Notes: generated from the sequence alone by a model not told the origin. A stretch of DNA of 41,898 nucleotides from an uncultured archaeon (GCA_964442255.1 CAYTYC010000012.1:1-41898); one strand, 5' to 3'; counted from the stretch's first letter, positions 22,961 through 41,898 are shown. Numbers and translations: made by a program.

Positions 22961-23043
22961 TTTAATTACTTTTGTTGCCCTCTTTTTTAACTGGCGAAGC
23001 CAATCTTTGGCTTTTTGATCAAACTTTTTCCCAAAAAGTTTGC

Positions 23044-23115
23044 GGGCTTGTGGTCTAGTGGCAGGACGTCGCCTTCACACGGCGGAGATCCCCGGTTCGA
23101 TCCCGGGCAGGCCCA
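23044..23115 (+). tRNA. trnV: tRNA-Val(CAC)
   Basis: GGGCTTG/CAGGCCC acceptor, TCGCC-TTCACAC-GGCGG anticodon arm, CCCGG-TTCGATC-CCGGG. Confidence 0.93.
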
Positions 23116-23283
23116 TTTGCCCATTCCGTAGGGCAGGTCCGGTAAGCCACCTCCTTCGCTTTGCTGCGGAGGTAGGTTTGCTCGTTTCGCTCGCATGTGC
23201 CGGTTTCGCCCGGCAGGAACGAGATACGTCAACCCGCCCTTCGCTTAGCTCGGGATGGGTTATAAATATGGTGGCCCGCAAAC
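23116..23283. repeat. GC-rich multi-hairpin cassette downstream of tRNA-Val
   Basis: Shares an exact 27-mer TTGCCCATTCCGTAGGGCAGGTCCGGT (23117-23143) with 38411-38437. Confidence 0.8.
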
Positions 23284-23320
23284 GGATTCTTTTAATGCCT
23301 TTTGCTGTCTTAGTTTTTAA

Positions 23321-25642
23321 ATGCGCCCAAGGAATTTCCTGTTCTGTTTTCTTGCGATTTTCCTGGTTTTTTTGTTGAGTTGGGGGCTCAGCATGAACTG
23401 GAATTCATTGTATACCGCGCCAAAATCAATCGGCTTAAGCCTTATGGAATACGATACAAAAATTGCGCCGGAACAGGAAGCATGCTTTTCCCTGCAAATT
23501 GAATCCAATTTCGCCAAAAAAACAAACAGAAACCTCACAGTAATTGCTAATCAAAGAATTGCGCTGGAAAAAGAGGTTGACGTTTCCAAAAACCCTTTGC
23601 TAAAGGAATGCCTTTCGGCAGAATTTTTTTCCGAAGGAGAAAACTTTGTTGAAATGCGGATGGAGGAAAAACGGGTTTTTTACCATTTAAGTGCAGAAGA
23701 CGGAGTTAAGGAAAGTGTCCCTGTGCTTGCGCTTGAATCCTTGCCGGGAACAAGGGACAAAGTTATTGTAACAGTCACAAACAACCCTGATACAGCCTAC
23801 ACTCCGGTGGAAATCTATGTTAACGGGAAATTAGACCACCGGGCTTATTTCTCGGGAGAAAACTTTTCGTCAGCCGAAAGAATTGAATTAAGGGAAGGCA
23901 AAAACGAAGTAAAGGCGGTTTTCTTAGGGCAGGAAGACGAGATTTATGTGGAAAAGCCTTTGGGCTTCAAAATGAATCCCTTCCTTGGATTGATTGTTTT
24001 ATCCCTGCTTTTATGTGTTCTCGCTTTTCTGGTGTTCCCGAAAAAAGGCTTTTTTGAAAGGATTTCCTTTTCAATTCTCGCCTTTTTCTCAATTGTCTGC
24101 GTTGTTTTCTTTTTGCTTTACGTTTCCGGAATCCTTTCCGCGCAAAACTTTGTTGCAGGAATAATTGTTGTTGCGGTTGCTTTGGCTGTTTTTTTCAGGA
24201 AAAATTTTCGGAAACCCGACAGCCTTTTCACGGAAAACTGGAAAAAAAGGATTAAATCATTTCCCCCGCTTCTCTTCATGCTCTTGTGCATGATTCTGTT
24301 CTCATCGCTTTTCTTCAACTTTTTCACCCCCACCTACTTCGGGGTCTGGACAAGCTTTTATGAAAGGCAGTCCCGCACCATAATGGAAACACAGGAAATT
24401 CCTGTAACAGATGAATACAGTTTCCTTGGGACAAAGCCCTTCGGCTACATGACAGGCTATTTTTTCCTTAACCCCGGAATTTCGTGGTTAACCGGCCTGC
24501 CCACGCAACAAAGCTATGCGATAATAATGATTTTATCCCAGCTTGCGCTAATTGCATCCGCATTCCTTTTCTTTGGCACATTTGGGTTGGGAAGAAAGGC
24601 GTACATCGCGGTTGCGGTGAGCTTGTTTGGGGGATTTGTTTTCTCTGACTTCAGCTTCAACATAAGGCACGTGGTAAGCTATGCTTTCCTTTTCATGGGC
24701 ATGTATATGCTCCGAAAAAACAATGCGGTTGGCAGCGGGCTGGCTCTCGGATTCGGAACCTTTTTCCAGGCGCCGCTGTTTGCGATGTGCCTGGTGTTAG
24801 CGCCGGTGATTATCACAAAAAAGGAGGGCCTGAAAACGCTTGCCGTTTCCCTTTCTGTTGCAGCTTTAACCGCCCTCGTGTTTTTCGCCCCCACCCTATT
24901 GCAGGCAGGCATTCCCACACAGGCAATGCACAACGTTTGGGGGCATTTCTGGAGCATTCCCCTGTACGGGTTTGTGCTGGACTACCTGTCAATTCTTTTG
25001 CTGATTGCGCTCTTCATTGTTCCCTTTGTTTTCCTGAAAAAAGTGAAGTTCACCGCGTTTTCCCTGCGTGTTTTGGCTTTCCTTTTGCTTTTCATTTTCA
25101 TTCAGCTGTTTGTGAGCTACAGGATAAATGTGCCGGCGACAATAACCTTTGCACTGCTTGTGGCGCTTTTGTTTCCCGCGGACTTTGTGCGTGACAGGCT
25201 GAGGGAATATTCGATGTCAAGTTTTTTTGCCTTGGGCTATGCGTTCATGTTCATAGTGATAATAGCCTTCTACCCCGTTACGCCCTATGTTTCAGACGCC
25301 GCGGAATTTGTAAAGGAAAACACTTCCACTGAGGCAAACATTTTGAACGAGCCCTACCTCGGCCATCCATTAATTCATCTGGCGGAAAGAAAGGCTTCCG
25401 CGGATTTGGCCGTGGAGTATGCTAACCAGGGGATGATTGAGGACAGCTACAAATTCATTAAAAACAAGAACCCGGAAATTTTGGGGAAGTACGGAATAGA
25501 CTACGTGTTCACGCGCTCCGTTTTTCTGGATGAAAAGCCTGTGGGCGACAACTGGCACTGGGAAGTGATTGAATTCCCTTTCCTGGACAAGGTTTACGCA
25601 AACGAATACCTTATGGTGCACCGGGAAAGAAAAAACACGTAA
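23321..25642 (+). CDS. Large polytopic membrane protein, GT-C glycosyltransferase-like
   Basis: N-terminal TM, about 200-aa external domain, more than 12 TMs with loop FYERQ...DEYSF..KPFGY, C-terminal NILNEP..GH and KYGIDYVF. Confidence 0.55.
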   Translation: MRPRNFLFCFLAIFLVFLLSWGLSMNWNSLYTAPKSIGLSLMEYDTKIAPEQEACFSLQIESNFAKKTNRNLTVIANQRIALEKEVDVSKNPLLKECLSAEFFSEGENFVEMRMEEKRVFYHLSAEDGVKESVPVLALESLPGTRDKVIVTVTNNPDTAYTPVEIYVNGKLDHRAYFSGENFSSAERIELREGKNEVKAVFLGQEDEIYVEKPLGFKMNPFLGLIVLSLLLCVLAFLVFPKKGFFERISFSILAFFSIVCVVFFLLYVSGILSAQNFVAGIIVVAVALAVFFRKNFRKPDSLFTENWKKRIKSFPPLLFMLLCMILFSSLFFNFFTPTYFGVWTSFYERQSRTIMETQEIPVTDEYSFLGTKPFGYMTGYFFLNPGISWLTGLPTQQSYAIIMILSQLALIASAFLFFGTFGLGRKAYIAVAVSLFGGFVFSDFSFNIRHVVSYAFLFMGMYMLRKNNAVGSGLALGFGTFFQAPLFAMCLVLAPVIITKKEGLKTLAVSLSVAALTALVFFAPTLLQAGIPTQAMHNVWGHFWSIPLYGFVLDYLSILLLIALFIVPFVFLKKVKFTAFSLRVLAFLLLFIFIQLFVSYRINVPATITFALLVALLFPADFVRDRLREYSMSSFFALGYAFMFIVIIAFYPVTPYVSDAAEFVKENTSTEANILNEPYLGHPLIHLAERKASADLAVEYANQGMIEDSYKFIKNKNPEILGKYGIDYVFTRSVFLDEKPVGDNWHWEVIEFPFLDKVYANEYLMVHRERKNT

Positions 25643-25700
25643 ACCTGGACAACACAAAGGTTAAAAAAACTTCAATAAAAATTATTCTGGGGGGCTTGAA

Positions 25701-26387
25701 TTGGCGGACAAGGTTTTGCTTAACCAAAGCGCGAAAAAGGTTGAACGCGAATTGTACAGGTCCAGTTCGCTTTTAACGAATTTGAAGGAATTGAACGGCT
25801 CGCTGGAAAGCATTTACTCCAACCTGCTGAAACTGGAGGGGCTTGCAGAAGAAAACCCCGTGATTGCAAAAAAGTTGAGGGAACAGTTCAGGGAAACAAA
25901 AATCCTTCCATTGTTCAAGAAAATGGAGCAAAATTTGGTGGGGTTTAGGGGGGAGCTGGAAAGGCTTGAGGACAGCTCACTGAAAGCAAACCTTTTCCTT
26001 GAGGGAATGCGCGGCGAGCGCACATACAAATTCCGCGATGAAGTGGGCGCAAGGGAATTCATTGAGGAACTGCTTTCAGCCCTTGCGGTTGAAGAGGTCA
26101 CCTTCAGGCCCGAATTCATTGGGGTAACGGATTTAAGCGGAATAGCAGAAGAGCTTGAAGTTGAAAAAGGAAAAAACCAGGCGCTGAAGGTGCCGTCCCA
26201 TAAAGTGCAGAGACTGTTTGAAATTGTCTCCAAAAGCACGGAACCAAAAAATTTCAGGATTGAAACCGGTTTGTTCAGGCTCTGGTGGAACACGAAAAAC
26301 CAGTTTTCGGTTGAGGCGGAAACCGGCCTGCTGAAAAGGATTGACCGAATCTCCAAAAACCTTGAGGCAACCTTTTTTGAGGGCTAA
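25701..26387 (+). CDS. Hypothetical coiled-coil protein
   Basis: 228-aa ORF with genome-typical codon use and heptad-rich N-half. Confidence 0.65.
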   Translation: MADKVLLNQSAKKVERELYRSSSLLTNLKELNGSLESIYSNLLKLEGLAEENPVIAKKLREQFRETKILPLFKKMEQNLVGFRGELERLEDSSLKANLFLEGMRGERTYKFRDEVGAREFIEELLSALAVEEVTFRPEFIGVTDLSGIAEELEVEKGKNQALKVPSHKVQRLFEIVSKSTEPKNFRIETGLFRLWWNTKNQFSVEAETGLLKRIDRISKNLEATFFEG

Positions 26388-27679
26388 TCCGTAAAAGCGG
26401 AGGCGGTTTCCCCGCCGTCCCAGCTGAATCTCGGTCGTACTTTAATCATCCACAGTTTCTCGGTGTTGTCGTCCAGCACAAGCGCGTATCCCTTTGATTT
26501 TGGCATTTCCTGGAAGTATTTGTCAAAGTCCTGGTGGAGGTAGGAGGGACGGAGCTGCGAGACTGCCTCAATGTCGGGCTGGGAGGTCATGCGGTGGCTT
26601 AAGAACAGGTCGCATTGTGAAATAGCGTCGGGGTGAATCTTGTTCGGCCTCTGGGTTGCGAGCACCAAACTCAGCCCCGGCTGCCTTCCAACCCTAACCC
26701 ATTCAAGCAGAACGCTTAAGGCAATGCTTTTCCTGTCGTTTGGCATGAACATGTGCGCCTCGTCTATAAGCATCCAAACCAAAGGCATTTCGCTTTCCCT
26801 TTTTTCCCCGTGAATCAGCCTTATTTCTTCTTCTTTCCTGTAAAGCATTCTTTCCTCAAACAATTTTTTTCCAAGAAGCCCGACAATAATGTCGCGGGTT
26901 CCCTCCATTTCAATTGCCTGCCTGTAGGCTGAAACATCAATTATTGTTATTTTTCCGGGTTCGGCTATTTCCCTGATTTTTGTTCCCTGTTTTTCAAACA
27001 ATCCCCAGCTGTCCGCGATTTTCAGCCTGTTTTTCACCGCCTGCGCGGTTGTCTTGTCGGCTTCCCTGTCTTTTTCAACTTCCTGCATTAACTCCTTTAA
27101 CCCGTAGTATGAGCCCAGCCTTTCCTTCAGTTTTTCCACAACCCGTGAAAGCAGCACTCCCTCTTTTTCCCTCCAGTTGATTCCAAACAATGAAAGCCAT
27201 TCTTCGGGCTCAAGCTCCGCTGTTTTAAGCGTAAAGCTTCCGTCAATTGGAACCTTTTTGTCCTCGTAAAATTTTTTTTTTCCCTTTGGCACCAGCACCT
27301 GAACATCAGTGGAGTCGGGCTCCAAATCCCAGTTGAATAATTCGCTTTTTTCCTCGTTGTTTGCAACCTTCAGCGTCCAAAAGATTCCCACCGTGTCAAT
27401 CGCAATAACCGAAATGCGTTTTTTTATGTGCTCGGGCTGTCGCGCAAATTCCTCTATAAGCACAGAAAGGCTATAGCTCTTACCGCCTCCGCGTTTTCCG
27501 CAAATCAACATCACGTGGGGCTTTGCGATGTCCATCAAAATTTTTCTGCCGAGCACAGGCCTTTCACCTGAGCTCATCACAACTTTTCCGAGGTAGGCGG
27601 TTCCCTTCTCGCGGTACTTTTCCAAATCCCCCAAACTTCTTCCAATAACCGACTGCTTCTCGAAATCTTCCAAAGCCAT
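26384..27679 (-). CDS. HerA/FtsK-superfamily ATPase (DUF87-like)
   Basis: CGKRGGGKS Walker A, LIDEAH Walker B, GRQPG, LATQRP. Confidence 0.88.
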   Translation of the reverse strand: MALEDFEKQSVIGRSLGDLEKYREKGTAYLGKVVMSSGERPVLGRKILMDIAKPHVMLICGKRGGGKSYSLSVLIEEFARQPEHIKKRISVIAIDTVGIFWTLKVANNEEKSELFNWDLEPDSTDVQVLVPKGKKKFYEDKKVPIDGSFTLKTAELEPEEWLSLFGINWREKEGVLLSRVVEKLKERLGSYYGLKELMQEVEKDREADKTTAQAVKNRLKIADSWGLFEKQGTKIREIAEPGKITIIDVSAYRQAIEMEGTRDIIVGLLGKKLFEERMLYRKEEEIRLIHGEKRESEMPLVWMLIDEAHMFMPNDRKSIALSVLLEWVRVGRQPGLSLVLATQRPNKIHPDAISQCDLFLSHRMTSQPDIEAVSQLRPSYLHQDFDKYFQEMPKSKGYALVLDDNTEKLWMIKVRPRFSWDGGETASAFTD

Positions 27680-27713
27680 AATAGATTAAACGCTCACTTA
27701 TTTAAAGATTACA

Positions 27714-27810
27714 CCGGCCTTTTTCAAAAAAGGCTGGCGAAAAATTGCCTTTGGATTCAGCCTTTTGGAAAAAGGTTGGCCAAAAGTGCCTTCGGCTTTG
27801 CGCAAACCTT
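27714..27810. repeat. Tandem REP-like palindromes
   Basis: GCCTTTTT..AAAAAGGC and CAGCCTTTTGGAAAAAGGTTG; matches 5036-5065. Confidence 0.75.
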
Positions 27811-27855
27811 CCAAAAACGATATCTTTTTATTCCTGTAAACCGTTTAAATTAGCC

Positions 27856-28059
27856 ATGAACTTCAAGCCAACCAAATGGAAATTCCTGGTTTCGGTGCTG
27901 GCTTTTATTGTGATTGATTTGCTTTTGTCTGTGAGCCTGGTTTGCCTTGATGCGCCGTGCCCCTGGCATGAAAATGTTTTTCATCCGCTTTTTATCATTA
28001 TTAGCTTGGTTGCCCTTATTGTGGCATATGTTGTCTGGAGCCTGATTGAAAAGAAATAG
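27856..28059 (+). CDS. Small two-TM membrane protein
   Basis: MNFKPTKWK, TM, CLDAPC, TM; TTTAAAT box upstream. Confidence 0.7.
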   Translation: MNFKPTKWKFLVSVLAFIVIDLLLSVSLVCLDAPCPWHENVFHPLFIIISLVALIVAYVVWSLIEKK

Positions 28060-28382
28060 TTTTTGCCTTATTTGTTTTCAATTTCTTCTCTTAGTTTTTC
28101 AATGCAGCCAAAAGTCTTGAATTTACTTTTATCCAGTCTTAACAATTCTTCTTTATATTTTTGTTTTAACGTGGTTTTGGGGATTTAGCTCACTGTATGT
28201 TTGTGGGGGTGTAAAACTTAAAAAAGAGCAAAGAGGAAGACCCGCTTTCCGTCGAGGAACGGAAAGCAGGCAAAGGGGAGAAAAAAAGCAAACCACCGGG
28301 CCAAAAAAAAGTTTTTGGTGGGGGGTTTTGAAGCCCTGATGGCCTGCTTTTTTTTCTTTTTTTATTTGGGAGTAAGGAGGCT

Positions 28383-28853
28383 TTATTTTTGTGCAATCAC
28401 GTACATTACATTTTGCCCGGAATGCACTTTTTTCAGGTGGCCCTCTTTATGGAGCTTGTTCAGCCTCTGTGAAGCGCCATTCCTCCCCTTGTACTTTAAT
28501 TCCTCCTGAACTTTTTCCGCTGTCGCGGAACCGTTTTTTTGCACTAACTCCAGTATTTTGTTGTCAGTCTCCGAAAGGATTTCATAGAAGGGCGGCTCAA
28601 CTTCCTTTTGCTTTTGCCCTGTCTTGAATTCAAACATCATTTTGTCGTATTTGTCGTTTATCTGGTCAAGGATTTTGTTTGTTTTGCCCCTTTCCTCCGC
28701 GAGCTTGAACAACAGCACGGAAACAAACAACGGATCCTTGTTGTGCTCAAGGATTTCCTGGATATCCAAAGTAAGCTCATTGAATTTTGGGCTCAGCTTT
28801 TCAATCATTTCCTTTTGCTTGAGAAAGTCCCTGAACATGTCATGACTATTCAT
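28383..28853 (-). CDS. Coiled-coil plus C-terminal winged-HTH protein
   Basis: LSETDNKILELV...ATAEKV...GASQRLNKL..EG.L.KV..G. Confidence 0.8.
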   Translation of the reverse strand: MNSHDMFRDFLKQKEMIEKLSPKFNELTLDIQEILEHNKDPLFVSVLLFKLAEERGKTNKILDQINDKYDKMMFEFKTGQKQKEVEPPFYEILSETDNKILELVQKNGSATAEKVQEELKYKGRNGASQRLNKLHKEGHLKKVHSGQNVMYVIAQK

Positions 28854-28880
28854 GGTATATCATGATACAGTCATGATATA
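28840..28880 (-). promoter_or_regulatory. Phased TCATGR boxes between the TATA box and start codon
   Basis: TCATGA 28840, TCATGG 28850, TCATGA 28860, TCATGA 28871; inverted repeat TATATCATGA/TCATGATATA. Confidence 0.6.
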
Positions 28881-29016
28881 TAAATACTTTTCGCCTTTTT
28901 TTTGGAAACCCTTTTAAGGATTGGGGTTTGCTTTCCGAAAAACAGGTTTTTGGAAGACTTCATGGACAGAAAGCTTATAATGTGCGAAAGCCTTTTATTA
29001 GATGGCAGGCGAGGAT

Positions 29017-29457
29017 ATGGCAAGGAGAAAAGAACCCAAGAAAAGGCTAACCTTTCAGGAAAGAAAGGCAAAGCGCGCCAAAAGGAGTGCTTTAAGAGAG
29101 CCGGAAATCCCCCAAGACGTTAAGATAAAAGCGGAAGTCTGGATAGCAATGATGCAGCAAAAGCATCTGAAATCAGAGGGAAGGATGCTGCCCCCAAAAT
29201 TCATTTTTGACGGCCTACGCCAGTTCGTTTCGGCTGATTATTATGGGCAGTGGATTAACTGGAGGGTGAGACAGTACAGGAAGAAATTCAAAGAATGGCT
29301 TTCAACCAAGCAGGGGCAAAGGTATAAGGCTTTCTTGGATTGGCTTACATTTATTGAAGCGAAAGAAGAGCTTGGCATAAGGGTAGCGTATGAATTCCCT
29401 GAATGGGTCAAGTCAGATGAAGGAAGGAAATGGCTTGCTGAACGCGGTCTCGCCTAA
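29017..29457 (+). CDS. Hypothetical basic protein
   Basis: MARRKEPKK start after a GAGG SD; 146 aa. Confidence 0.6.
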   Translation: MARRKEPKKRLTFQERKAKRAKRSALREPEIPQDVKIKAEVWIAMMQQKHLKSEGRMLPPKFIFDGLRQFVSADYYGQWINWRVRQYRKKFKEWLSTKQGQRYKAFLDWLTFIEAKEELGIRVAYEFPEWVKSDEGRKWLAERGLA

Positions 29458-29951
29458 ACAAGCCTTATTCTGGTTTCAGTTTGCAGGAGTTCCTGCAATG
29501 CTTTTTCCAGCTCTTCCTGGCCGCAGATGAGCTTTTCAGTGTCTGCCCTTGAAATTAGCACTTCTGTCAGCTCTTTTTCTTCGCCGAACAGCTGGTTTAC
29601 GCCTAAAACGCGCACATCCCCAACCAAATCCTGCACCATTTTCTTGTGGTCCTTTGTGTGCTCCACAACCCTAACCTTTTTTTCCATGAGCCTGCTTAAC
29701 TCCCTTACAATCCTTCCCTTTTTGCCTATCAGGGCGCCGATTCTGCCTTTTCCAACCAAAACGAGTAAATCGCATAAATCAAGGGTTTTCACGTACTCAA
29801 TCTCCAAAGGGGAAAAATTTTTTTCCACTTTTTCCAGCGCCCTTAAAGCCCTTAAATCCAGTTTTTTTAATCCAAGTGAATCCGCCTTTTCACTGCATTT
29901 TTCACAGAATTCCCCTGTTTTAATGTCCTTGTCGCACACAGGCACCTTCAT
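29454..29951 (-). CDS. nusA: Archaeal NusA-like KH-domain protein with N-terminal Cys motif
   Basis: PVC...K.G.FC.KC, GALIGKKGRIVRELS KH motif; GGTG SD before ATG 29951. Confidence 0.75.
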   Translation of the reverse strand: MKVPVCDKDIKTGEFCEKCSEKADSLGLKKLDLRALRALEKVEKNFSPLEIEYVKTLDLCDLLVLVGKGRIGALIGKKGRIVRELSRLMEKKVRVVEHTKDHKKMVQDLVGDVRVLGVNQLFGEEKELTEVLISRADTEKLICGQEELEKALQELLQTETRIRLV

Positions 29952-30040
29952 TTTAAACACCCAATAAGGTAGGGCAAAAGGGGTTAAAAGAATAGCCCGC
30001 AGGCTAAGCCAGAAATAAAAAAAAAGAATCAGAGAAAAAT

Positions 30041-30313
30041 TCATTTCTTCATTGAAATTTCGATTGCCGAAACCTTCAAGGGATTTCCTTCCTCTGAGCT
30101 TATTTCTTCTGTCGCAATATCGATTTTGTCGATCTTTAATTCCGTAATAAACTTGTTTTTCACTATTTCCGCTACATCCACTGCCCTTGAAATGGCTTTC
30201 CCTCTGGCTTTTATTACAACGTCACTTGCTCCGTTGTTGACCTGGGTTACGACAGCCAAAACATAGGCCATTGTGCCTTTTTTTCCGATGAAAACCGTAT
30301 TCTCTTCTGCCAT
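30041..30313 (-). CDS. albA: DNA/RNA-binding protein Alba
   Basis: [35 protein letters not shown]. Confidence 0.97.
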
Positions 30314-30424
30314 TGTTACACCTCCGTTCCAATGATTAAGTTCCTTGAATTGCTAGAATCAATGGCTAAAATATACTCCACTGGGTTGTTTTTTTAAAAC
30401 TAACTAATAAGCAGAGAAAAACAG

Positions 30425-31270
30425 TTATTTAAGGTATAACAGGGTTTTTCTCCAGATTGTGGGGGTAATGGCGGGGTCGTAGTTGAAGTAAATGCTTTTT
30501 CCCACAATAAGGTTTTTTTCCACTATTCCCGGGTAAATGTCCAGCCCGTTCACGTTTTCTATTTGGGCGATTTCGTTTCCAACAGGGGTTACAGGGAATG
30601 TTTCAAGGTAATAGGGCGCAATTCCTTCAGCGGGCGCAATGTCAATGCCCTCCATTATCTGGTGCTTATAATCAACCCTCACAATCCTTCCTGCCACGGC
30701 TCTCCTATCGGTGCAGCCGTCCATTAACGGGTTATCCGTGTTATCGCACCTCACTGGCACAACGTCCCCAAAGGTTGCCTGCCAGCCCAGCACATCCGAT
30801 GCCCCGGGAACCCTTATCCCGGAATCCATTACCACGATTAGCTTGCCCCCGAACTGAACTTTTTTCTTTATTGCTTCAGCCACTTTTGCGGGAATTTCCT
30901 TGCTTCCCTCAAGGTGCTGGTCAAGTATGATTATCGGAAACTGCGCGAGCTGTTCTTCAGGCGAAACCTTTAACTGGTTGATGCTCCTGTAATGCACCCT
31001 CACTATGTCTTTGTTGTCGCTGAATGATTTTTCCATTGCAGGCGAAGCCGAGCCCACAAACAGCACGTTAGTCGGCTCCCCTCCGCCCAAACCAGGGATT
31101 TCCCAGAAGCCGAACCTGTGGCCAAGGAAAGCCACAATAATCAGGATTAAAATCAAGGGAATTAATCCTTCAAGGTTTCTTGACATTTTTCCCCTGAACC
31201 CGCCACCGGCAGGGGGGCTGTAATCAGCCGGAGAACCTCCTCCGCCTCCACCGTCGTCTTCCGGGTACAC
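30425..31270 (-). CDS. Membrane-anchored class I GATase-fold protein
   Basis: Gly/Pro-rich N-terminus, TM, QLAQFPIIIL...KKVQFGGKLIV. Confidence 0.7.
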   Translation of the reverse strand: MYPEDDGGGGGGSPADYSPPAGGGFRGKMSRNLEGLIPLILILIIVAFLGHRFGFWEIPGLGGGEPTNVLFVGSASPAMEKSFSDNKDIVRVHYRSINQLKVSPEEQLAQFPIIILDQHLEGSKEIPAKVAEAIKKKVQFGGKLIVVMDSGIRVPGASDVLGWQATFGDVVPVRCDNTDNPLMDGCTDRRAVAGRIVRVDYKHQIMEGIDIAPAEGIAPYYLETFPVTPVGNEIAQIENVNGLDIYPGIVEKNLIVGKSIYFNYDPAITPTIWRKTLLYLK

Positions 31271-31534
31271 TCTTTTTCACCTGATTCAATTAATCTGTTA
31301 ATACTAATACTATTTTACTGCTGAATTAATTTAAAAGCTTTTGTCCTTTAAAAGCTTTTCTCTTCCGCCGGGCTTGTAGATAAACTATTGGATTTTGGCT
31401 TTTGCAGATAAATTAAGTTCCCGTTTTTGAGCTTTTTAGCTTGTTTTTCCAAAGAAGGGAGCACAATACACGCTGGCTCACTATTTGTCAAAATGGCATA
31501 CAAAAAGGCAACCTTTTTATGCTTGTTGTAGGCT

Positions 31535-32266
31535 ATGGCTGGCATGGAAAAAGTCGAAAAATTTGATGTGAAACTGCCGAGCGATGCTACTAAGGTTACT
31601 GTCAGTAATCTGTGGTCATATTGCTTGGCTATAGCCAGAACAGGCAAAACCTTTGAGGCAAAAGATTTGCTGAAAGCTAACCCTCCACATACCTCAGAAG
31701 ACCCTATGCGAAGGAATTTAGCTTACCTGAAGTATTTGGGGTTTTTGGATGAAAAAAGGGAAAAGTTGGTAAAAGATGGGAAAAAAGTCAATATTCAACG
31801 GTTTAACCAGCGTGTGAAGGATGCCTTGGTTAAGGACTTCTTTTATTTGCTTGCATCAGGAAGGAAAGACGAAGCCAGAACCCACTGGAGACGCCTGATT
31901 GAGAAACACGCTATTTTCAAACTGGTTAAAAGCAAACTTTTCAAGGAAACAGATTTGGCTACCCTTAATGACTTGGAGGACCTGTTAAGGATTCAAGATA
32001 ACAGTAAAAGCAATCCGCAGTTTTACAAAAGTGGGGCATTATTTGTTGCGAGCCTGTTGGAAGAGGCTGGCCTCATAAAGTATAATTCAGTTGAAGGTAA
32101 GCTAAGGCCCCTGTCCCCCGAAGAAAGAACTGAAGGAGAAGAAGCTGCGCCTGGTTTTGCAAATGAACCACTTGGGATAAAAGAGAACTTGGAAAAAGGA
32201 GAAGAGTACCTTGTTTCGATACGTGGTGCAGATCTAAATCTTGATTTTAAGGTTAGAACCACGTAG
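31535..32266 (+). CDS. Hypothetical tandem winged-helix protein (DUF5343-like, tentative)
   Basis: RRNLAYLKYLGFLD and VASLLEEAGLIKY recognition-helix/wing-like motifs; ends at a TAG in frame with the next ORF. Confidence 0.6.
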   Translation: MAGMEKVEKFDVKLPSDATKVTVSNLWSYCLAIARTGKTFEAKDLLKANPPHTSEDPMRRNLAYLKYLGFLDEKREKLVKDGKKVNIQRFNQRVKDALVKDFFYLLASGRKDEARTHWRRLIEKHAIFKLVKSKLFKETDLATLNDLEDLLRIQDNSKSNPQFYKSGALFVASLLEEAGLIKYNSVEGKLRPLSPEERTEGEEAAPGFANEPLGIKENLEKGEEYLVSIRGADLNLDFKVRTT

Positions 32267-32269
32267 GAT

Positions 32270-32971
32270 TTGGACGATGTTAGAATGGTGCTAAAAGTAA
32301 TCGAAAGAAAGATTGCACAGAAAACAGCTGTGCCTTCTGTGGAAGACCCAAATGAGGAGTTAACATCCTGGCAGGTTGGTTCTATGGACGCAACAATAGT
32401 ATTCTTGGATGGGAAATATCTTCAGTTGATTGGCGATTATTTTAGTGACGAAGACGACAAATTAAGATACGACTTGAATCAATTGGCAATAACGCTTTCA
32501 AAGCAACAGGGGCTATGGTGCAAAAAAGCATTCTATTATACTGCACCACCATTTCAATCGGATGTACCAACAGCAGATGAGACCAAACGGAGGTCAAACT
32601 ATGACCGATTTAAGAACAAGTTGGATAAAATCCCCAACTTTGTTGTTAGGGAAGGTCGCTGCCAAAAAGTCGATGGAGAATGCCATCAAAAAGGAGTGGA
32701 TACGCTGGTAACGATGGACCTGCTTTCGGAAGCAGCCGCAAACAGGGGCTTAACCTTTGTTCTGGTAGCTTGCGATACTGATTTCGTGCCAATACTTAAA
32801 GAGATTAACGAAAAGTTTGGGATACGGATAGTCCTTTACTACTTTACTGATAGAGTGAGAGACTCTAAGTTCTCAATGTCCAATCACATTCTAACTGCTT
32901 GTGACGAATGCGTAATGATGACCAAGGACATGTTCCTAAAAAGTCAGTTTCCAAGAAATAGCGGAGAATAA
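32270..32971 (+). CDS. NYN-domain (LabA/DUF88, PIN-like) ribonuclease
   Basis: IVFLDGKY, FYYTAPP, QKGVDTLVTMDL, LVACDTDFVP. Confidence 0.9.
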   Translation: MDDVRMVLKVIERKIAQKTAVPSVEDPNEELTSWQVGSMDATIVFLDGKYLQLIGDYFSDEDDKLRYDLNQLAITLSKQQGLWCKKAFYYTAPPFQSDVPTADETKRRSNYDRFKNKLDKIPNFVVREGRCQKVDGECHQKGVDTLVTMDLLSEAAANRGLTFVLVACDTDFVPILKEINEKFGIRIVLYYFTDRVRDSKFSMSNHILTACDECVMMTKDMFLKSQFPRNSGE

Positions 32972-32980
32972 GAGTAACGT

Positions 32981-33004
32981 CTGGCATCCCCGTAGAAATG
33001 CCAG
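32981..33004 (+). terminator. Hairpin after the NYN gene
   Basis: CTGGCAT-10nt-ATGCCAG, 10 bp after the stop. Confidence 0.35.
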
Positions 33005-33143
33005 GGCTCATGTTATAAATAAAATACTTGAACAGGTATTTAAATCTTACTTTTGGCCTTTTTGCCCAATAAGTACTGTGGTGGCTTTGTGGACATGCCG
33101 CGGTAGGTTTATCTACAAGCCCTCTTCCCCGCCCAGTTCCTGC

Positions 33144-34076
33144 TTATTTCAGCATTCCGTTGTACATGTTCACTAAAATGTAATAGTATTTTTCCTCCAA
33201 ATCGGGGTGCGCAAACATTTCCGGGGGAAGCGCATAATAAGCCACTTTCCCGCCCCTTGTGATTATCACGGGAAAAACCCTCCCCAAATCCTCTCCATTG
33301 GAGTCCTTTACCGCTCCCCCGACATCCACGCTTAAAGGCGTTGTGCTGCCTGCTGCCCCTGAAGGCTTTACGACAGCAAAATTGCCCCGCATTAAAAGGT
33401 TTTTCTTCAAGCCCACAATAAACGCGTTGCCTGGCTCAACTCCCACTTCCAGCCTTCCAGCCAAAACACCCGTATGGCAGTTTTCGTCAAAGGAAGACAT
33501 TCCACAGTAATTGCCCTTATAGTTTGCGCCAATGAAGTCATCGAATGCAACAATTTTTTCTCCCTCTTTTCTCGCCCACGGCCCAATGATTTCGTGGTCG
33601 TTTTTTCCTTCCGGCCTTTCATCAAAGTACAGGAAATTGTCGTCCCTTCCAAGGACTGTCCCGGCATCACCTGTCCAGACAACCCTTCCGCCCTGGTTCA
33701 CGTAATTCATGAAATACTTTAACTGCCTGGTTTCCATTTCCCTTGCACGGGTTACAATCACAAGATGATAATCCTTCAAATTCCCTTCATTCAATAAATC
33801 CGTGTGAAGCCGGTAAGGGTAAACCCCGATATAGTCCCTGTCCCTTAAAATGTCCGCCAATAAATCCGGGTCACCCAAGCCCGAGTCACCGTAAACTATG
33901 AGCACTTTTGGCTGCCCCAAGACAGTGTAATAAACTTCGCACCACCCCGGAATTGTGCTGCACTTCATTATTCCGCTCCAAGTCAAAATAAACAGCACAA
34001 TTGCAACCAAAACCAGGAGCACAACCACGTGCATGGCGGTTTTCAGGGGAGACTGGGGCTGTCCGGGGTACTTCAT
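33144..34076 (-). CDS. Membrane-anchored class I GATase-fold protein, probable paralog of 30425-31270
   Basis: TM, PKVLIVYGD, LKDYHLVIVT...YVNQGGRVVW. Confidence 0.7.
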   Translation of the reverse strand: MKYPGQPQSPLKTAMHVVVLLVLVAIVLFILTWSGIMKCSTIPGWCEVYYTVLGQPKVLIVYGDSGLGDPDLLADILRDRDYIGVYPYRLHTDLLNEGNLKDYHLVIVTRAREMETRQLKYFMNYVNQGGRVVWTGDAGTVLGRDDNFLYFDERPEGKNDHEIIGPWARKEGEKIVAFDDFIGANYKGNYCGMSSFDENCHTGVLAGRLEVGVEPGNAFIVGLKKNLLMRGNFAVVKPSGAAGSTTPLSVDVGGAVKDSNGEDLGRVFPVIITRGGKVAYYALPPEMFAHPDLEEKYYYILVNMYNGMLK

Positions 34077-34127
34077 TTTCACCACAAAGCAAACGCTTTT
34101 ATTCCTTAAGGATTAAGTAGTTTTTAA

Positions 34128-34745
34128 CTATAATAATGTTTTGTTTGAGGTTTTTTGGATGGTTAAACTTTCCCGCGGCCCGGGGGTAAGCGGTCCAAGC
34201 AGTTCCCTTGGAATAATGCGTTTCTTTGACGTGGACACCGGCGGACCAAAAATGTCGCCGGAATTCATTGTCGCATTAAGCGTTGTATTCATAATAATTG
34301 TTGTGATAGTTAAAAGCCTGCTGCCGTCCTGATTATTTGGGCCTTCTTTGCCCCGTCCTTTTCGTGGGCTTTCCCTTAACCCCGGCTTTTCCTTGGTTTC
34401 AGCCTTTTTTCCTTTCAGGATTGAGTCGGCTTCCTTTATTGTGGAGTAAGGGTCAAGCCGCCCTACTGTTGCCCTTAATCCTGCAAGCGCAAGGGTTCTC
34501 TCCCTGAAGCCGTACTTGGTTTTTTCCAGCATCGCCTTTGTGAATAGGTCAATGTACTCCTGGAATTTTCCGGCTTCAATAAGCTCTTTTGCGGTCGGCA
34601 TTCCAAGCCGCCGCATCCCGGGGTCAAAAACCCTCAGCTTTCCCCAAAGTTGTGCGTTCACCAATTCCCTTTCACGTATTTCTTCATCAGGGGTTTCAAC
34701 AGCGGCCTTCAAGGCAACCTCAATCGGGTCAGCCACTCTATTCAC
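34128..34745 (-). CDS. Hypothetical protein; its C-terminal part overlaps sec61beta antisense
   Basis: GTGA coupling to the ileS stop; about the first 135 aa look protein-like. Confidence 0.55.
   Translation of the reverse strand: MNRVADPIEVALKAAVETPDEEIRERELVNAQLWGKLRVFDPGMRRLGMPTAKELIEAGKFQEYIDLFTKAMLEKTKYGFRERTLALAGLRATVGRLDPYSTIKEADSILKGKKAETKEKPGLRESPRKGRGKEGPNNQDGSRLLTITTIIMNTTLNATMNSGDIFGPPVSTSKKRIIPRELLGPLTPGPRESLTIQKTSNKTLL
34159..34332 (+). CDS. secG: Preprotein translocase subunit Sec61beta (archaeal SecG)
   Basis: GPSSSLGIMRFFD...GPKMSPEFIV + TM. Confidence 0.9.
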   Translation: MVKLSRGPGVSGPSSSLGIMRFFDVDTGGPKMSPEFIVALSVVFIIIVVIVKSLLPS

Positions 34746-37594
34746 TTCCCCAAGCCAATAAAAAATTCCCTGAATAAGTTTTTTTCCATTTTTCCTTTTC
34801 CTTCCCTTAATTTTGTGTTGGTCTGCTTTTCAATTTCTTTCCCAAATTTTTTCACAAACCCTTTGTCAGAGGAACCGAGCCTCAACTCAACAGTATCATT
34901 CGGGTTAAATTTGAGTTCTTTTCTCTTGGATTGAATTTTCCTGACCAATTCCGCAAGCTCCCATTTTTCCTTTAACTCTTCACTTTCCTCTACATTCAAA
35001 TGCAGTCTGATTTTTTCCCCGAAGTCCTCCGAAAAGAATTTTCCCTTCGGCTTTCCCCTGGAAAAAGAAATTTTTTCCACGTTAACCATCTGCGCAAGAA
35101 TTCCCGTTGTTTCCTTCAACGGCTTTCCCTTTGCTTCAATAACCAGTTCCTTCAAAACCCACCGCAAGCGCTTTTTCTGTTTTTCCCTCATTGACAAAAC
35201 AGCCTGCGCAATCTCCTTCACCAGCCGGAATTCTTTCTCCAGCCTTTTGTCAATCAATTTTTTGTCAGCTTTCGGGAGCGAATAAAAGTGGATTGATTCC
35301 TTCATTCCCTTTTGCTTCATGTCCCGGTAAAAGTATTCCGTTAAATGCGGGACAACCGGCGCAAGCAGTTTCATCAAACCAAAGGTCACGTAGTTTGCGG
35401 TTTTGCTTACCGGCTTTTCTTTCACCCTGTTCCTGATGAGCTTAATGTAAGTCCTGCTGAAATCCTCCAACAAAAAATCATGCACCAATTGTGTTGCCTT
35501 AGAGTAGGCATAGGAATTGTATGCATCCAAAACCTCTTTGCTTAAGGAATTAAACCTTGAAACAATCCACTTGTCTTCAGGCTTCAGCCCTGAGGCCGAG
35601 ATTTTTTTTTCGGGTTCCATTTCCAGATACAGGTGAATGAAGTTAAACGAATTCCAAAGGACATTAAAGAAGCGGTTGATTTCCCTGAATGCGTCCCAGG
35701 AAAAGGCAATATCCTCTCCCCGGGAAACGGAGGCAAAATAGTATCGCAAATAATCCCGGTTGTGCTTTGCGATTACATCCTTGGGCTGCACAATATTCCC
35801 CTTGCTTTTCGACATCTTTGTTTTCTCGACATCCAAAACCATTCCATGAACCGCAATCGCCTTGAAAGGCGCCTTGTTGAAGGAAATCGTTGAGGTAATC
35901 AACTGCGAATTCCACCATCCCCTAAACTGGTCGCTTCCCTCCAAGTTAAAGTCCGCTGGCCAAAACTTTTCAAACAACTTTTTATCCAAAGGATAACCCA
36001 ATGCCCCCCAGCTGCTGACACCCGAATCAAACCAGACATCCATTACCTCGGGAACCCTTTTCATTTCGCCTTTGCATTTCTTGCACGGAAACTTAACTTC
36101 ATCAATGTGCGGCTTATGCAAATCCAGTTCCTTGGGAAGCTTTGCGTGTTTCCCTAATTCTTTCAATGAGCCAATCACAACCTTTTCTTTGCATTCCCCG
36201 CAAACCCAAATCGGAAGGGGCGTGCCCCAGTACCTTGCCCTTGAAATCGGCCAGTCCCCTATTCCATGAATCCAGTTTTTCATTCTTTCCTTCATCCACC
36301 CCGGAACCCACTCAACTTTTTCATTCAATTCAAGCATTTTTTTCTGGATTCCTGACACGCGGAAAAACCATTGCGGGACGGCAATCATCAAAAGCGGAGT
36401 CTTGCATCTCCAGCACAAAGGATAATCATGCGTGAAAGGATGCCCGTACACCAGCAAACCTTTTCCCTTCAAGTCCTGCACAATCTCTTCATCCACTTCC
36501 CTTGCCCTTTTTCCCGCGTACTTTCCCGCCTCTTTTGTTAATTCCCCGTTCAATTGCACCGGGCTGATTGCAGGCAAACCCGCCTCTTTTCCCGCTTCAT
36601 AGTCCTCGCGCCCATGCCCCGGCGCCGTATGCACTAACCCTGTGCCTTCCTCCAAATTCACGTACCTGCTGTGCAAAATCACGCGGTAAGCGTTTTTCAG
36701 TTCAGGCAAATCCAAAAAACCTTCCAACGGGGCCTCATACTCCCAGCCATCCATTTCTTTTCCCCTGAATTCCTTTTTGGCTGTGTAGCCCGCTTCAACC
36801 GCATCCATTAAACCCTGCACCAAATCCTTTGCGATAACCCATTTTTCCCCGTTGCTTAACTCAATTTCACTGTACAAAAACTTCGGGTGAACCATTACCC
36901 CTGTGTTGCCGGGCAAAGTCCAGGGGGTGGTGGTCCAGACAATAAGGAAAGTGTTTTCCTTTCCCTTTACCTTGAATTTGACGTAAACTGCCCTGTCCGT
37001 TTGTTTGGCGTACTCTATTTCATTGTAGCTCACAGAGGTTGCGCACCTTGGGCAGACATGCACTGAATACTTGTCCAAATAAAGAAGCCCCTTTTCCTCC
37101 GCCTTCTTGAACGCAAACCAAATCGCTTCAATGTACTCGTTCCGTAAGGTAATGTACGGATTTTCCCAGTCCATCCACACCCCCAAATCATTGAATTCTT
37201 CGTTCATTTCGTCAATGTACCGGGTTGCGTAAGACCTGCATTTTTCAATGAACTTCCCGACACCGTAATCTTCAATGTCTTTTTTCCTTTTCACTCCAAT
37301 CTCTTTTTCTATCTGCACTTCAATTGGAGTTCCGTGCGTGTCATAACCCGGGCGGTCAAAAACGTGAAGGCTTTGCATCCTCTTTGAGCGCAAGGCAATG
37401 TCCTTCAAAATCTTGTTCAAGCCCGTGCCCATGTGAATGTGGCCTGTCGCGTAAGGCGGGCCGTCCATAAAATAAAAGCCTTTCCTGTTTTTTGCGCTCT
37501 TTGCCCTAACCTTTTCCGGAATCTTGTTTTTTTCCCAGAATTTTTTGATTTCCTCTTCCTTCTGCAGGGAATACTGTTCAAGGAGTTTTTTCAT
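34742..37594 (-). CDS. ileS: Isoleucine--tRNA ligase
   Basis: DGPPYATGHIHMG, WTTTPWTLPGN, GTGLVHTAPGHG, DW.ISR.RYWGTP, KMSKS. Confidence 0.97.
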   Translation of the reverse strand: MKKLLEQYSLQKEEEIKKFWEKNKIPEKVRAKSAKNRKGFYFMDGPPYATGHIHMGTGLNKILKDIALRSKRMQSLHVFDRPGYDTHGTPIEVQIEKEIGVKRKKDIEDYGVGKFIEKCRSYATRYIDEMNEEFNDLGVWMDWENPYITLRNEYIEAIWFAFKKAEEKGLLYLDKYSVHVCPRCATSVSYNEIEYAKQTDRAVYVKFKVKGKENTFLIVWTTTPWTLPGNTGVMVHPKFLYSEIELSNGEKWVIAKDLVQGLMDAVEAGYTAKKEFRGKEMDGWEYEAPLEGFLDLPELKNAYRVILHSRYVNLEEGTGLVHTAPGHGREDYEAGKEAGLPAISPVQLNGELTKEAGKYAGKRAREVDEEIVQDLKGKGLLVYGHPFTHDYPLCWRCKTPLLMIAVPQWFFRVSGIQKKMLELNEKVEWVPGWMKERMKNWIHGIGDWPISRARYWGTPLPIWVCGECKEKVVIGSLKELGKHAKLPKELDLHKPHIDEVKFPCKKCKGEMKRVPEVMDVWFDSGVSSWGALGYPLDKKLFEKFWPADFNLEGSDQFRGWWNSQLITSTISFNKAPFKAIAVHGMVLDVEKTKMSKSKGNIVQPKDVIAKHNRDYLRYYFASVSRGEDIAFSWDAFREINRFFNVLWNSFNFIHLYLEMEPEKKISASGLKPEDKWIVSRFNSLSKEVLDAYNSYAYSKATQLVHDFLLEDFSRTYIKLIRNRVKEKPVSKTANYVTFGLMKLLAPVVPHLTEYFYRDMKQKGMKESIHFYSLPKADKKLIDKRLEKEFRLVKEIAQAVLSMREKQKKRLRWVLKELVIEAKGKPLKETTGILAQMVNVEKISFSRGKPKGKFFSEDFGEKIRLHLNVEESEELKEKWELAELVRKIQSKRKELKFNPNDTVELRLGSSDKGFVKKFGKEIEKQTNTKLREGKGKMEKNLFREFFIGLGK

Positions 37595-38241
37595 TTTTTC
37601 ACCAGTTCTTCAATTTTTTCCACGGAAACCTCTTTTAAGCTTTTTACAGCCAAATCCGCGCGAGAAAAATCGTGCTTGGAGGTGAACTCCGTTACAAGCC
37701 CAATGCACTTCATTCCCGCATTCTTTGCCGAATCAATTCCCGGGGAAGAATCTTCCACGGCAACCGCATTCCGGGCTTCAACCCCTAAAGCCTTTAAGCT
37801 CTTCAGATAAATTTCCGGGTTCGGTTTGATCTCTGCAACGTCGTCCCCGGAAAAAACCGAATCAAAAATTCCCTGAAATTTTCCGTGCTCCAAAACAGCG
37901 TCAACATTTTTTTTGTGCGAGTTTGTCGCCAGCCCAAGTTTCCAGCCCTTTTCCTTCGCTTCCTTTAACAGCTCCCTTGCGCCTTCGCTTACTTCCACTT
38001 CCTTCAAGTATTCGTAATGCAGTTCCCGCTTTTTTTTGCTTAACTCAACCACGTCCCCCTCAATTTTAAAGTCAGCCAAAGTTTTCTGGATTGCCTTAAA
38101 GGTTTTGCTTCCAACCAAATTCTGGTAATAATCCTGTGTAATCTCCGCCCCAAGCGGGGAAAACAATTCCTTCCATTCCCTGAACCCAAGCGCCTCTGTG
38201 TTAATCAGCACCCCGTCCATGTCAAAAACCAATGCATTCAA
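37591..38241 (-). CDS. HAD-superfamily phosphatase (beta-PGM-like)
   Basis: FDMDGVL, LATNS, KPNPEIY, VEDS..GI. Confidence 0.92.
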   Translation of the reverse strand: MNALVFDMDGVLINTEALGFREWKELFSPLGAEITQDYYQNLVGSKTFKAIQKTLADFKIEGDVVELSKKKRELHYEYLKEVEVSEGARELLKEAKEKGWKLGLATNSHKKNVDAVLEHGKFQGIFDSVFSGDDVAEIKPNPEIYLKSLKALGVEARNAVAVEDSSPGIDSAKNAGMKCIGLVTEFTSKHDFSRADLAVKSLKEVSVEKIEELVKK

Positions 38242-38260
38242 TTAATTCACGCTCCAAAAA

Positions 38261-38335
38261 TGGGGCCAGGAGGATTTGAACCCCCGACACATGGCGTATA
38301 AGACCATTGCTCTAACCAGGCTGAGCTATAGCCCC
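38261..38335 (-). tRNA. trnI: tRNA-Ile(UAU)
   Basis: GGGGCTA/TGGCCCC acceptor, ATGGT-CTTATAC-GCCAT anticodon arm, GGGGG-TTCAAAT-CCTCC, A73. Confidence 0.9.
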
Positions 38336-38612
38336 TTGCCGGCTGCTGCCGGCAGTGCAGGGTGCCATCTGCGATGGCACTTGCTCGCCCCAATGGGCTC
38401 GCACTGCCCCTTGCCCATTCCGTAGGGCAGGTCCGGTGTGCCGGCTGTTCCCGGCAGTGGAATCCCGCCTGCTCGCGGGAGCGGAGTGCGCCATGCTTTG
38501 CATGGCAGTTGTTCGGCTTTCGCCTCGCACTTGCCGCCTTCTTGCGGCAGCAGAGATGTCCTGTTTCCTCCGCTTTTGCTCCGGAGGCAGATCTGCTCGC
38601 TTCGCTTGCAGT
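38336..38612. repeat. GC-rich multi-hairpin cassette upstream of tRNA-Ile
   Basis: About nine hairpins; the 27-mer shared with the tRNA-Val cassette; 10-bp direct repeat GCCCCTTGCC at 38331 and 38406. Confidence 0.8.
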
Positions 38613-38772
38613 TGCCCTGCAGTTAAACAGTGTATATTTACCTTTATATAATTCACTTAAAAGAGAATCAGAAAATCCTTTGTGGGCGTATTTGTCGATC
38701 CCTTCTCATGTTTAACACTCCAAGAAATGGGGTTAAAAGGGTTTTTAAAGGATAAGGGGAAGCTGAATTAAT

Positions 38773-41860: not shown

Positions 41861-41870
41861 CGCGACAACC

Positions 41871-41890
41871 CTGCCTGCCTTGGCAGGCAG
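41871..41890. repeat. CTGCCTGCC-TT-GGCAGGCAG palindrome
   Basis: Perfect 9-bp arms, inside a larger CGAC...GTCG stem at the window edge. Confidence 0.6.
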
Positions 41891-41898
41891 ATAGGTCG

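Follow-up and report, generated by a model that had tools for sequence, protein, structure and literature searches.

Bacterial interspersed mosaic elements (BIMEs) are mosaics of hairpin types that vary in order and orientation, and yeast GC clusters and fungal double-hairpin elements are mitochondrial counterparts of such repeats. The leaders and trailers described for archaeal pre-tRNAs are, to our knowledge, short and unstructured. Among the closest described systems are the short palindromic extragenic repeats of Gammaproteobacteria known as REPINs (PMC3116915) and the repetitive hairpin-forming elements (RHE) of sponge mitochondria (PMC2800124). Here, we describe two GC-rich hairpin arrays, R1 and R2, in a 41,898-nucleotide stretch of DNA from an uncultured archaeon (GCA_964442255.1, CAYTYC010000012.1:1-41898), which is an entire contig of a microbial-mat metagenome and which we refer to as the window. 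R1 lies 3' of a tRNA-Val gene and R2 lies 5' of a tRNA-Ile gene. The two arrays are homologous, belong to a family that is repeated in its genome beyond the window, and are built from modules that match tRNA leader and trailer hairpins of related archaea. We favor, tentatively and at slightly under an even chance, the explanation that they represent a lineage-specific family of pre-tRNA leader and trailer hairpin modules that was amplified and spread among tRNA loci in both orientations.

The two tRNA genes, tRNA-Val(CAC) at 23044-23115 (+; ARAGORN, and Rfam at 61.1 bits) and tRNA-Ile(UAU) at 38261-38335 (-; ARAGORN and Rfam), place one array 3' and the other 5' of its tRNA, as a first-pass annotation of the window had proposed. 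R1 (23116-23262, +) extends from the 3' end of tRNA-Val to the TATA-like box of the following gene and forms a GC island that peaks at 0.68, and R2 (38336-38622, -) comprises ~12 hairpins with a peak GC content of 0.72; the arrays are 65 to 72% GC, and the window as a whole has a GC content of 0.45. The same annotation had pointed to three shared segments, and all three are present. The 27-mer TTGCCCATTCCGTAGGGCAGGTCCGGT occurs exactly at 23117-23143 and 38411-38437, on the plus strand in both cases, with a local alignment score of 54 compared to 18.2 +/- 2.5 for shuffled sequences. The palindrome TGCCGG-N6-CCGGCA is found at 23198 and 38439, and we located a third exact copy at 38337; allowing up to two mismatches yields five matches against 1.3 expected, a count reached by 0 of 100 shuffles. 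Reading the sequence also confirms a CCTCC...GGAGG pair at 23150/23168 and 38567/38583. After the 27-mer is masked, 23151-23216 is still co-linear with 38565-38622 (score of 61 compared to 21.4 +/- 3.4). The significant scores of the 27-mer and of the co-linear block indicate that R1 and R2 are homologous and share the same chromosomal orientation; insertions and deletions make the order of their modules a mosaic. The plus strand of R1 and the minus strand of R2 are perfectly complementary over 27 nt and ~80% complementary across another ~45 nt.

Compared to dinucleotide shuffles, the predicted fold of R2 has a z score of -6.5 on the minus strand and -4.1 on the plus strand, and the two strands of R1 score -3.4 and -3.8. 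Unpaired bases on the minus strand of the arrays are 45 to 46% A. Rfam identified only the tRNAs and returned no match within the arrays even at an E value of <=5, and Tandem Repeats Finder detected no periodic array in either R1 or R2. We rejected divergent signal recognition particle RNA, RNase P RNA, and C/D-box RNA, given the silence of Rfam at this threshold and the repetition of the sequence in the genome.

To describe the modules, we use two motifs defined in this analysis. A GA-hairpin consists of an outer stem, GA, a stem-loop of 2 to 5 bp, GA(A), and the closing outer stem; a trailer hairpin begins 1 to 3 nt past the discriminator and retains its loop and linker while its stem covaries. 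R1 has the module order S-R-Q-P-X. Module S (23117-23143, +) is the 27-mer itself, which begins 2 nt after the tRNA and consists of the hairpin TGCCC-ATTCCGTA-GGGCA followed by GGTCCGGT. It is followed by module R (23148-23176, +; CCACCTCC-TTCGCTTTGCTGC-GGAGGTAGG), which aligns with 38566-38588 of R2, module Q (23179-23195, +; TGCTCG-TTTCG-CTCGCA), and module P (23198-23215, +; TGCCGG-TTTCGC-CCGGCA), whose arms are conserved in sequence and whose loop is variable. Module X (23226-23262, -), found by the GA-hairpin scan, has an outer hairpin of AACCC/GGGTT that encloses CCC-GA-GC-UAA-GC-GAA-GGG on the minus strand (23237-23254). Looser forms of the GA-hairpin can be recognized by eye on the minus strand of module R, with GC-AAA-GC-GAA inside, and of module Q, which reads UGC-GA-G-CGAAA-C-GA-GCA and contains tandem G.A. 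The ends of R1 match each other in inverted orientation at 8 of 10 positions.

R1 is probably the 3' trailer of pre-tRNA-Val. This gene has no encoded CCA and is followed by TTT only, not by a T5 terminator, and because T-runs of >=4 first appear near 23285, past R1, the array would be read through from the tRNA. At the edge of R1 lies a TATA-like box, TTATAAATAT (23260-23269), most likely the promoter of an open reading frame (ORF) at 23321-25642 (+). This box belongs to the repeated unit, as a further copy of R1 sequence assembled elsewhere in the metagenome (see below) matches through 23269 and diverges beyond it. On the minus strand, the box is too near module X to transcribe that module whole.

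Read on the plus strand, the module order of R2 is P-hp-Q-S-P-hp-hp-Q'-hp-R-Q-hp, where hp denotes a further hairpin. In plus-strand coordinates, these are P1 (38337-38354), a hairpin (38362-38380), Q1 (38382-38403), S (38411-38437), P2 (38439-38456), two hairpins (38463-38480 and 38490-38506), Q' (38509-38529), a hairpin (38532-38549), R (38566-38588), Q3 (38594-38610), and a final hairpin (38607-38621). A TATA-like box, GAATTATATAAAGG (38642-38655, -), is presumed from its placement to be the promoter of a joint leader-tRNA-Ile transcript. No AT-rich box occurs between 38336 and 38625, so R2 would be transcribed if tRNA-Ile is, and a T5 run directly follows tRNA-Ile on the minus strand. Three overlapping ORFs of 98 to 117 amino acids cover R2, and another ORF runs through tRNA-Val into R1. 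We rejected protein coding for all of them because every frame is open in this GC-rich DNA, the region is built of hairpins, and the ORFs have zero homologues.

The family is multi-copy in its genome and is repeated beyond the window. Logan contigs from two runs of the source metagenome reproduce both arrays, and the 43-mer at 38438-38480 has a depth of 26.8 compared to ~7.5 for its surroundings (~3.5-fold). Four array segments lie on a 3.25-kb Logan contig whose depth tracks that of the window in both runs. In this contig and in another from the second run, the 3' end of a different tRNA (...GGTTCAAATCCCGGCGACCGCA) is followed, after a gap of 2 nt, by a version of 23198-23269 that differs at 10 positions. 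Unitigs and assemblies break within the arrays. Altogether, we count ~6 to 8 further contexts in the metagenome, one of them beside a tRNA, and only two tRNA-adjacent arrays within the 42-kb window. The finding that would have spoken against the first-pass annotation, only these two copies and a match to a known Rfam family, is contradicted by the additional Logan copies and by the absence of any Rfam match.

The first-pass annotation had proposed, as one of two options, a modular, noncoding mobile element of the BIME/REPIN type. Its modular, multi-copy, tRNA-flanking character stands, and its mobility finds no support in the window. Among the ~30 ORFs of the window, searches with Pfam or PHROGs revealed no HUH nuclease or REP-associated tyrosine transposase (RAYT), no GIY-YIG nuclease, no integrase, and no transposase. 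Apart from the partial match between the ends of R1, we found no terminal inverted repeats, the ends of R2 showing none, and neither array is flanked by a clear target-site duplication. Neither the 3' end of tRNA-Val nor the 5' end of tRNA-Ile recurs in the window when up to three mismatches are allowed, and comparison between and within the two runs showed no presence/absence polymorphism. Exact searches with a 22-nt core of the 27-mer, which the annotation had proposed to follow across genomes, produced 0 matches in GTDB species genomes and 0 in JGI metagenomes. A blastn-short comparison of 190 loci recovered no array homologous to R1 or R2, and a six-frame pseudo-protein search for arrays miscalled as ORFs had zero matches. 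Matches of four module patterns to viral contigs are due to chance only; one is in a coding region, one at a tRNA end, and one in an unrelated giant-virus repeat. In the last of these, TGCTCGCTTCGCTCGCA recurs every ~55 to 59 nt in a giant-virus contig (L109 3680-3820; L092, GVMAG-M-3300025767-21; loci under comparison carry the prefix L), each time preceded by CTACACTATAG; it is an unrelated family that shares a 17-mer by chance.

The alternative that the first-pass annotation left open, a structured RNA family, gains support from comparisons with related archaea. The isoleucyl-tRNA synthetase (IleRS) encoded beside tRNA-Ile places the host in the Iainarchaeota/Diapherotrites (DPANN), with a best match of 68% identity among 5.8 billion proteins. 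Relatives retain the gene order of an SSB-like OB-fold gene, tRNA-Ile, and IleRS, and this conserved order spanning R2 speaks against a chimeric join. Upstream of R2, the element ATGAGAAGGGATCGACAAATACGCC (38680-38709, -) provides a synteny anchor. It is conserved over ~28 nt as ATGAGAAGGGAT(G/C)(G/A)A(C/G)AAATACGCC (L081 9411, L082 9759, L189 6077, L190 679, and L192 8436), and a TATA-like box follows it in the window and in each relative, with the same placement relative to the element. Its role may be regulatory, or a tiny ORF may start there. The element is located 92 to 183 nt 5' of tRNA-Ile in the five relatives compared to 374 nt in the window, which identifies R2 as a 200- to 280-nt expansion of the tRNA-Ile leader.

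The tRNA-Ile leaders of at least 10 relatives' loci carry a GA-hairpin 26 to 60 nt 5' of the tRNA. We located these hairpins by a scripted motif scan, as MAFFT could not register short with long inner stems. Leaders favor the sense strand by 9 to 1, trailers have 0, and the background is 0.34 per kb. Across eight aligned sequences, 94% of cells are paired and 8 of 10 pairs show compensatory change, whereas slid controls reach at most 48%. In the window, GA-hairpins occur in the arrays on the minus strand only, two per array and 0 on the plus strand (P = 0.016 and P = 0.03 compared to shuffles); the scan hits are 23237-23254, 38382-38403, and 38593-38611, plus a weaker one in R1, and their outer stems are mostly only 3 to 4 bp. 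A hammerhead ribozyme, considered for the relatives' leaders (CUGUCGAG...CGAAGAC), was rejected because its supposed core forms a covarying helix, and a kink-turn was rejected because the internal loop is 2x2 or 2x3 rather than a 3-nt bulge with tandem G.A.

The plus strand of R1 likewise matches the tRNA-Ile trailers of other genera, in the sense of the tRNA and starting 1 to 4 nt past it. Module P and its linker (23201-23228) are identical to positions +4 to +31 of the L190 tRNA-Ile trailer at 23 of 28 sites (z = 7.9), and the alignment shows that two stem differences in P are compensatory. The first and second hairpins of the L192 trailer share their loops with S (TTCCGY) and R (TTCGCTTTGCT) but have different stems. 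In L008 and L192, tRNA-Ile is immediately followed by S-like hairpins whose loop is ATTSCGTA/TTCCGC; the L008 trailer resembles S plus P, and the trailer loops kept across genera include AUUCCGUA and UUCGCUUUGCU. The noncoding likeness to L190 and L192 may reflect either purifying selection or horizontal spread.

Growth by duplication is visible at several tRNA flanks of the phylum. L189 has at least three tandem 41-nt hairpin units after tRNA-Ile, and L190 has two diverged units in which the loop is kept and the stem is swapped. After tRNA-Arg, L019 (9479-9700) contains three units of ~100 nt, each restarting with the tRNA 3' end and with the stems of its first hairpin swapped from unit to unit. 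In L006 (9832-9925), 20 nt of the tRNA-Ile 3' end are repeated exactly after 73 to 74 nt that hold three GC-rich hairpins, and this insert sits before the usual T-rich terminator hairpin. In the phylum as a whole, perfect hairpins are overrepresented next to tRNA genes, with a mean coverage of 0.233 compared to 0.144 (P = 5e-4). A run of N (masked or a scaffold gap) at L019 9789-9888 interrupts a duplicated tRNA-Phe 5' region, and this apparent duplication may be an assembly artifact. Two more general rules were also considered. A cis processing stem between leader and trailer was rejected, as duplex energies and alignments for 25 tRNAs were no better than those of shuffles. A general mirror rule was rejected as well, since CGAA loops in leaders hold (13 versus 2) and UUCG loops in trailers fail (25 versus 17).

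In many Iainarchaeota, tRNA-Ile(UAU) directly precedes IleRS, and nothing but a spacer of structured hairpins separates the two (L190 901-1010, L192 8603-8680, L008 9928-9990, and L020 9826-9990); this spacer often ends in GGTAATATGAGAG or TGAAATG. The arrangement suggests a possible tRNA-synthetase co-transcript or a regulatory 5' untranslated region.

A third tRNA of the window is flanked differently. An intron-containing tRNA gene at 16052-16171 (+), probably Leu(UAG), is detected by Rfam at the E-value threshold (41.6 bits) and missed by ARAGORN. Its 3' flank, R3 (16172-16434, +), is made up of ~240 nt of AT-richer hairpins (16172-16412) and 20 nt that repeat the tRNA 3' end in diverged form (TTTGAATCCTCCCGCCTGCA at 16415-16434 compared to TTCAAATCCTCCCGCCTGCA at 16152-16171), and it includes an internal repeat of ~102 nt (16262 and 16364). 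The similarity of this flank to R1 or R2 is not significant, so the earlier statement that all three tRNAs have a palindrome cassette applies only loosely: hairpins adjoin each, and the family itself has two members in the window. R3 looks like an att-like or tandem-duplication footprint, and no integrase lies near it.

We next consider how the arrays might work and spread if they are an amplified family of leader and trailer modules. R2 would be transcribed from the TATA box near 38650 as a leader of ~285 nt and cut off at the 5' end of tRNA-Ile by RNase P, and R1 would be read through from tRNA-Val and removed by RNase Z. The hairpins would fold locally, and any role they have would be in cis, as structural or protein-binding spacers destined to be discarded. 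The family could have grown by local duplication, and copying between tRNA loci could have proceeded by nonreciprocal recombination, such as gene conversion, or by a transposition-like process. We invoke copying at the DNA level mainly because the GA motifs of R1 are antisense and its TATA box is too near module X; a process blind to orientation would leave R1 with a leader-type GA motif antisense to tRNA-Val. From the homologies described above, the modules are best read as home-grown Iainarchaeota leader and trailer hairpins that were amplified rather than as foreign cassettes.

Several observations weigh against this explanation. The leader-type motifs on the minus strand of R1 have no obvious use there, and transcription and processing would follow from the positions of promoters and terminators only. 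The count of G.U pairs, 13 on the plus strand versus 4 on the minus strand, opposes the GA motifs and A-rich loops that favor the minus strand. The covariation set was chosen by a structure-based scan, which inflates its paired fraction. A noncoding identity of 82% to L190, at an IleRS identity of only ~60 to 65%, could reflect the horizontal spread of a mobile element. Finally, the exact family was found nowhere else, and the nearest relative, at 68% IleRS identity, is too distant to trace recent history.

The last two points bear on the strongest rival, that the arrays are selfish, nonautonomous mobile DNA related to repetitive extragenic palindromic (REP) sequences, BIMEs, and REPINs or to miniature inverted-repeat transposable elements (MITEs), moved by a trans-acting nuclease whose gene would lie elsewhere in the genome. 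The tRNA flanks would then be harmless landing sites, and the hairpins would matter as DNA or single-stranded DNA. We consider this unlikely, although it accounts for the multiple copies, for near-identical 27- and 43-mers among otherwise diverged modules, for both orientations relative to tRNAs, for the mosaic order with insertions and deletions, and for assemblies that break inside the arrays. The conserved arms and variable loop of P, the inverted match of the R1 ends, and the absence of the arrays from relatives at 68% IleRS identity also fit, the cross-genus likeness to the L190 trailer could be horizontal transfer, and the genome harbors one or more further multi-copy elements, of which one, at the end of the contig, may be an insertion sequence. 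Against it, the window encodes no HUH/RAYT protein, transposase, or integrase, inverted ends are inconsistent between the arrays, no clear target-site duplication is present, and the two runs show no insertion polymorphism. Moreover, its modules match leader and trailer hairpins that are positionally conserved and change their stems in compensation, which indicates structures selected at fixed positions rather than random insertion. The arrays could also be relics of integrase-mediated insertions at tRNA genes, with the decayed ends of a plasmid or virus beside attL, which we regard as the least probable of the explanations considered. Duplicated tRNA 3' ends do follow hairpin cassettes in L006, in L019 (three copies), and at the tRNA-Leu of the window, and R1 is followed downstream by several orphan genes and a gene for a HerA/FtsK-like ATPase. 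Neither an integrase gene nor a second tRNA-Val 3' end or tRNA-Ile 5' end accompanies the arrays, however, R2 occupies the 5' side of its tRNA, and the modules are homologous to the ordinary leaders and trailers of relatives.

It is also conceivable, if improbable, that the arrays are noncoding RNAs of the minus strand, whose GA-hairpins would serve as scaffolds for an L7Ae-type or other G.A-loop-binding protein and which would be released by RNase P or would pair in trans. Release by RNase P would resemble the processing of mascRNA at MALAT1. Such a role is consistent with the conserved, covarying GA-hairpin found only on the sense strand in the leaders of many genera, with the minus-strand location of every scanned GA-hairpin in both arrays, with the A-rich loops and the best fold score on the minus strand of R2, and with the 27-nt complementarity of R2 (-) to R1 (+). 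It has to contend with a minus strand of R1 that has no usable promoter or partner gene, with a G.U count that favors the plus strand, with leader-trailer complementarity in cis that is not general in the phylum, and with a binding protein that is itself only hypothetical. We give very little credence to a stronger version, in which the tRNA-Ile leader from R2 (-) and the tRNA-Val trailer from R1 (+) would anneal in trans and couple the processing or stability of the two pre-tRNAs, with the GA-hairpins binding protein as part of a new Iainarchaeota pre-tRNA leader element.

The window has other features of note. A perfect hairpin, CAAACTTTTT-CCC-AAAAAGTTTG, occupies 23020-23042, 1 nt 5' of tRNA-Val, with T5 on both strands, and looks like a bidirectional terminator; sequences like it reach high depth in the metagenome, where one or more of the other copies have no tRNA after them. 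An orphan ORF of 170 amino acids (38773-39285, +), placed between the tRNA-Ile promoter region and the gene for the SSB-like OB-fold protein, has zero homologues among the 5.8 billion proteins searched, and we take it to be a lineage-specific insertion beside R2 because the gap at this site is far shorter in relatives. An NYN-domain protein (PIN-like RNase fold) is encoded at 32270-32971 (+); protein-only RNase P enzymes use folds related to NYN/PIN-like domains. The final ~55 nt of the window (41844-41898) are a multi-copy repeat with a depth of ~35 compared to 7, at least three distinct upstream contexts, and a 704-nt contig that runs >650 nt past the window. It includes the hairpin CTGCCTGCC-TT-GGCAGGCAG, just past the stop codon of an ORF at 41072-41860, and may represent one terminus of an insertion sequence. 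The contig probably stops at 41898 because of this repeat.

Streamlined genomes are the norm in DPANN archaea. If the arrays are an amplified leader and trailer family, such a genome accepts hairpin modules and amplifies them precisely where RNase P and RNase Z would discard them, and the arrays offer two leads: a new cis element, which would act in the maturation of archaeal tRNAs or control the tRNA-Ile/IleRS operon, and a natural case of functional RNA hairpins becoming repeat families. They also have practical consequences, as they break short-read assemblies and can be read by gene callers as spurious ORFs. Dispersed palindromic repeats have been studied extensively in bacteria and organelles. 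In the papers searched, we found no account of them in DPANN archaea, of long structured archaeal pre-tRNA leaders or trailers, or of a GA-hairpin leader.

The arrays resemble several known systems in part. In Nanoarchaeum equitans, another DPANN archaeon, GC-rich sequence that follows one split-tRNA transcript is exactly complementary to sequence that precedes another, as R1 is to R2 over 27 nt. PMC2237900 provides context for this system. Both tRNAs of the window are full cloverleaves, in contrast, and a bulge-helix-bulge junction is neither needed nor seen; annealing in trans, were it to occur, would do with whole tRNAs what Nanoarchaeum does with split ones. CRISPR arrays differ in that the modules here differ from one another and lack periodicity, and no cas domains occur among the window ORFs. 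The arrays also lack the terminal inverted repeats and target-site duplications that characterize MITEs, and, unlike integrated elements, they have no integrase and no bounding tRNA-end repeat; only the tRNA-Leu flank, which is unrelated, shows such a repeat.

With REP sequences, BIMEs, and REPINs, the arrays share short imperfect palindromes (~20 to 40 nt in REP sequences; here, modules of 17 to 29 nt), an extragenic location, multiple copies, presumed transcription together with neighboring genes, and mosaic order. They differ in having an archaeal host, no RAYT (an IS200/IS605-like Y1 HUH transposase whose gene the repeats typically flank) among the window ORFs, GTAG inside module S only rather than a GTAG-type cleavage motif across modules, and a copy number that seems to be in the tens at most, not hundreds; the observed copies go with tRNA gene ends, and the modules have positional homologues among leaders and trailers in other genera. 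The mitochondrial RHE and GC clusters provide a comparable picture of G+C-rich, lineage-specific, intergenic hairpin repeats in a compact, A+T-richer genome, with no nuclease attached and with differences in spacer size between relatives as a result. Those elements are organellar and unrelated in sequence, whereas the GA-hairpin and the loops described here are shared across genera. Ordinary pre-tRNA leaders differ from R2 in length and content, as R2 extends over ~285 nt with ~12 hairpins and shares long identical segments, inverted, with the trailer of another tRNA. The position of the arrays is nevertheless that of ordinary leaders and trailers: both abut mature tRNA ends, R2 has a presumed promoter upstream, and no terminator separates tRNA-Val from R1. 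Their motifs agree with this position as well, with GA-hairpins on the minus strand of the window and with S, R, and P plus its linker in R1 corresponding to the trailer hairpins of L192, L008, and L190.

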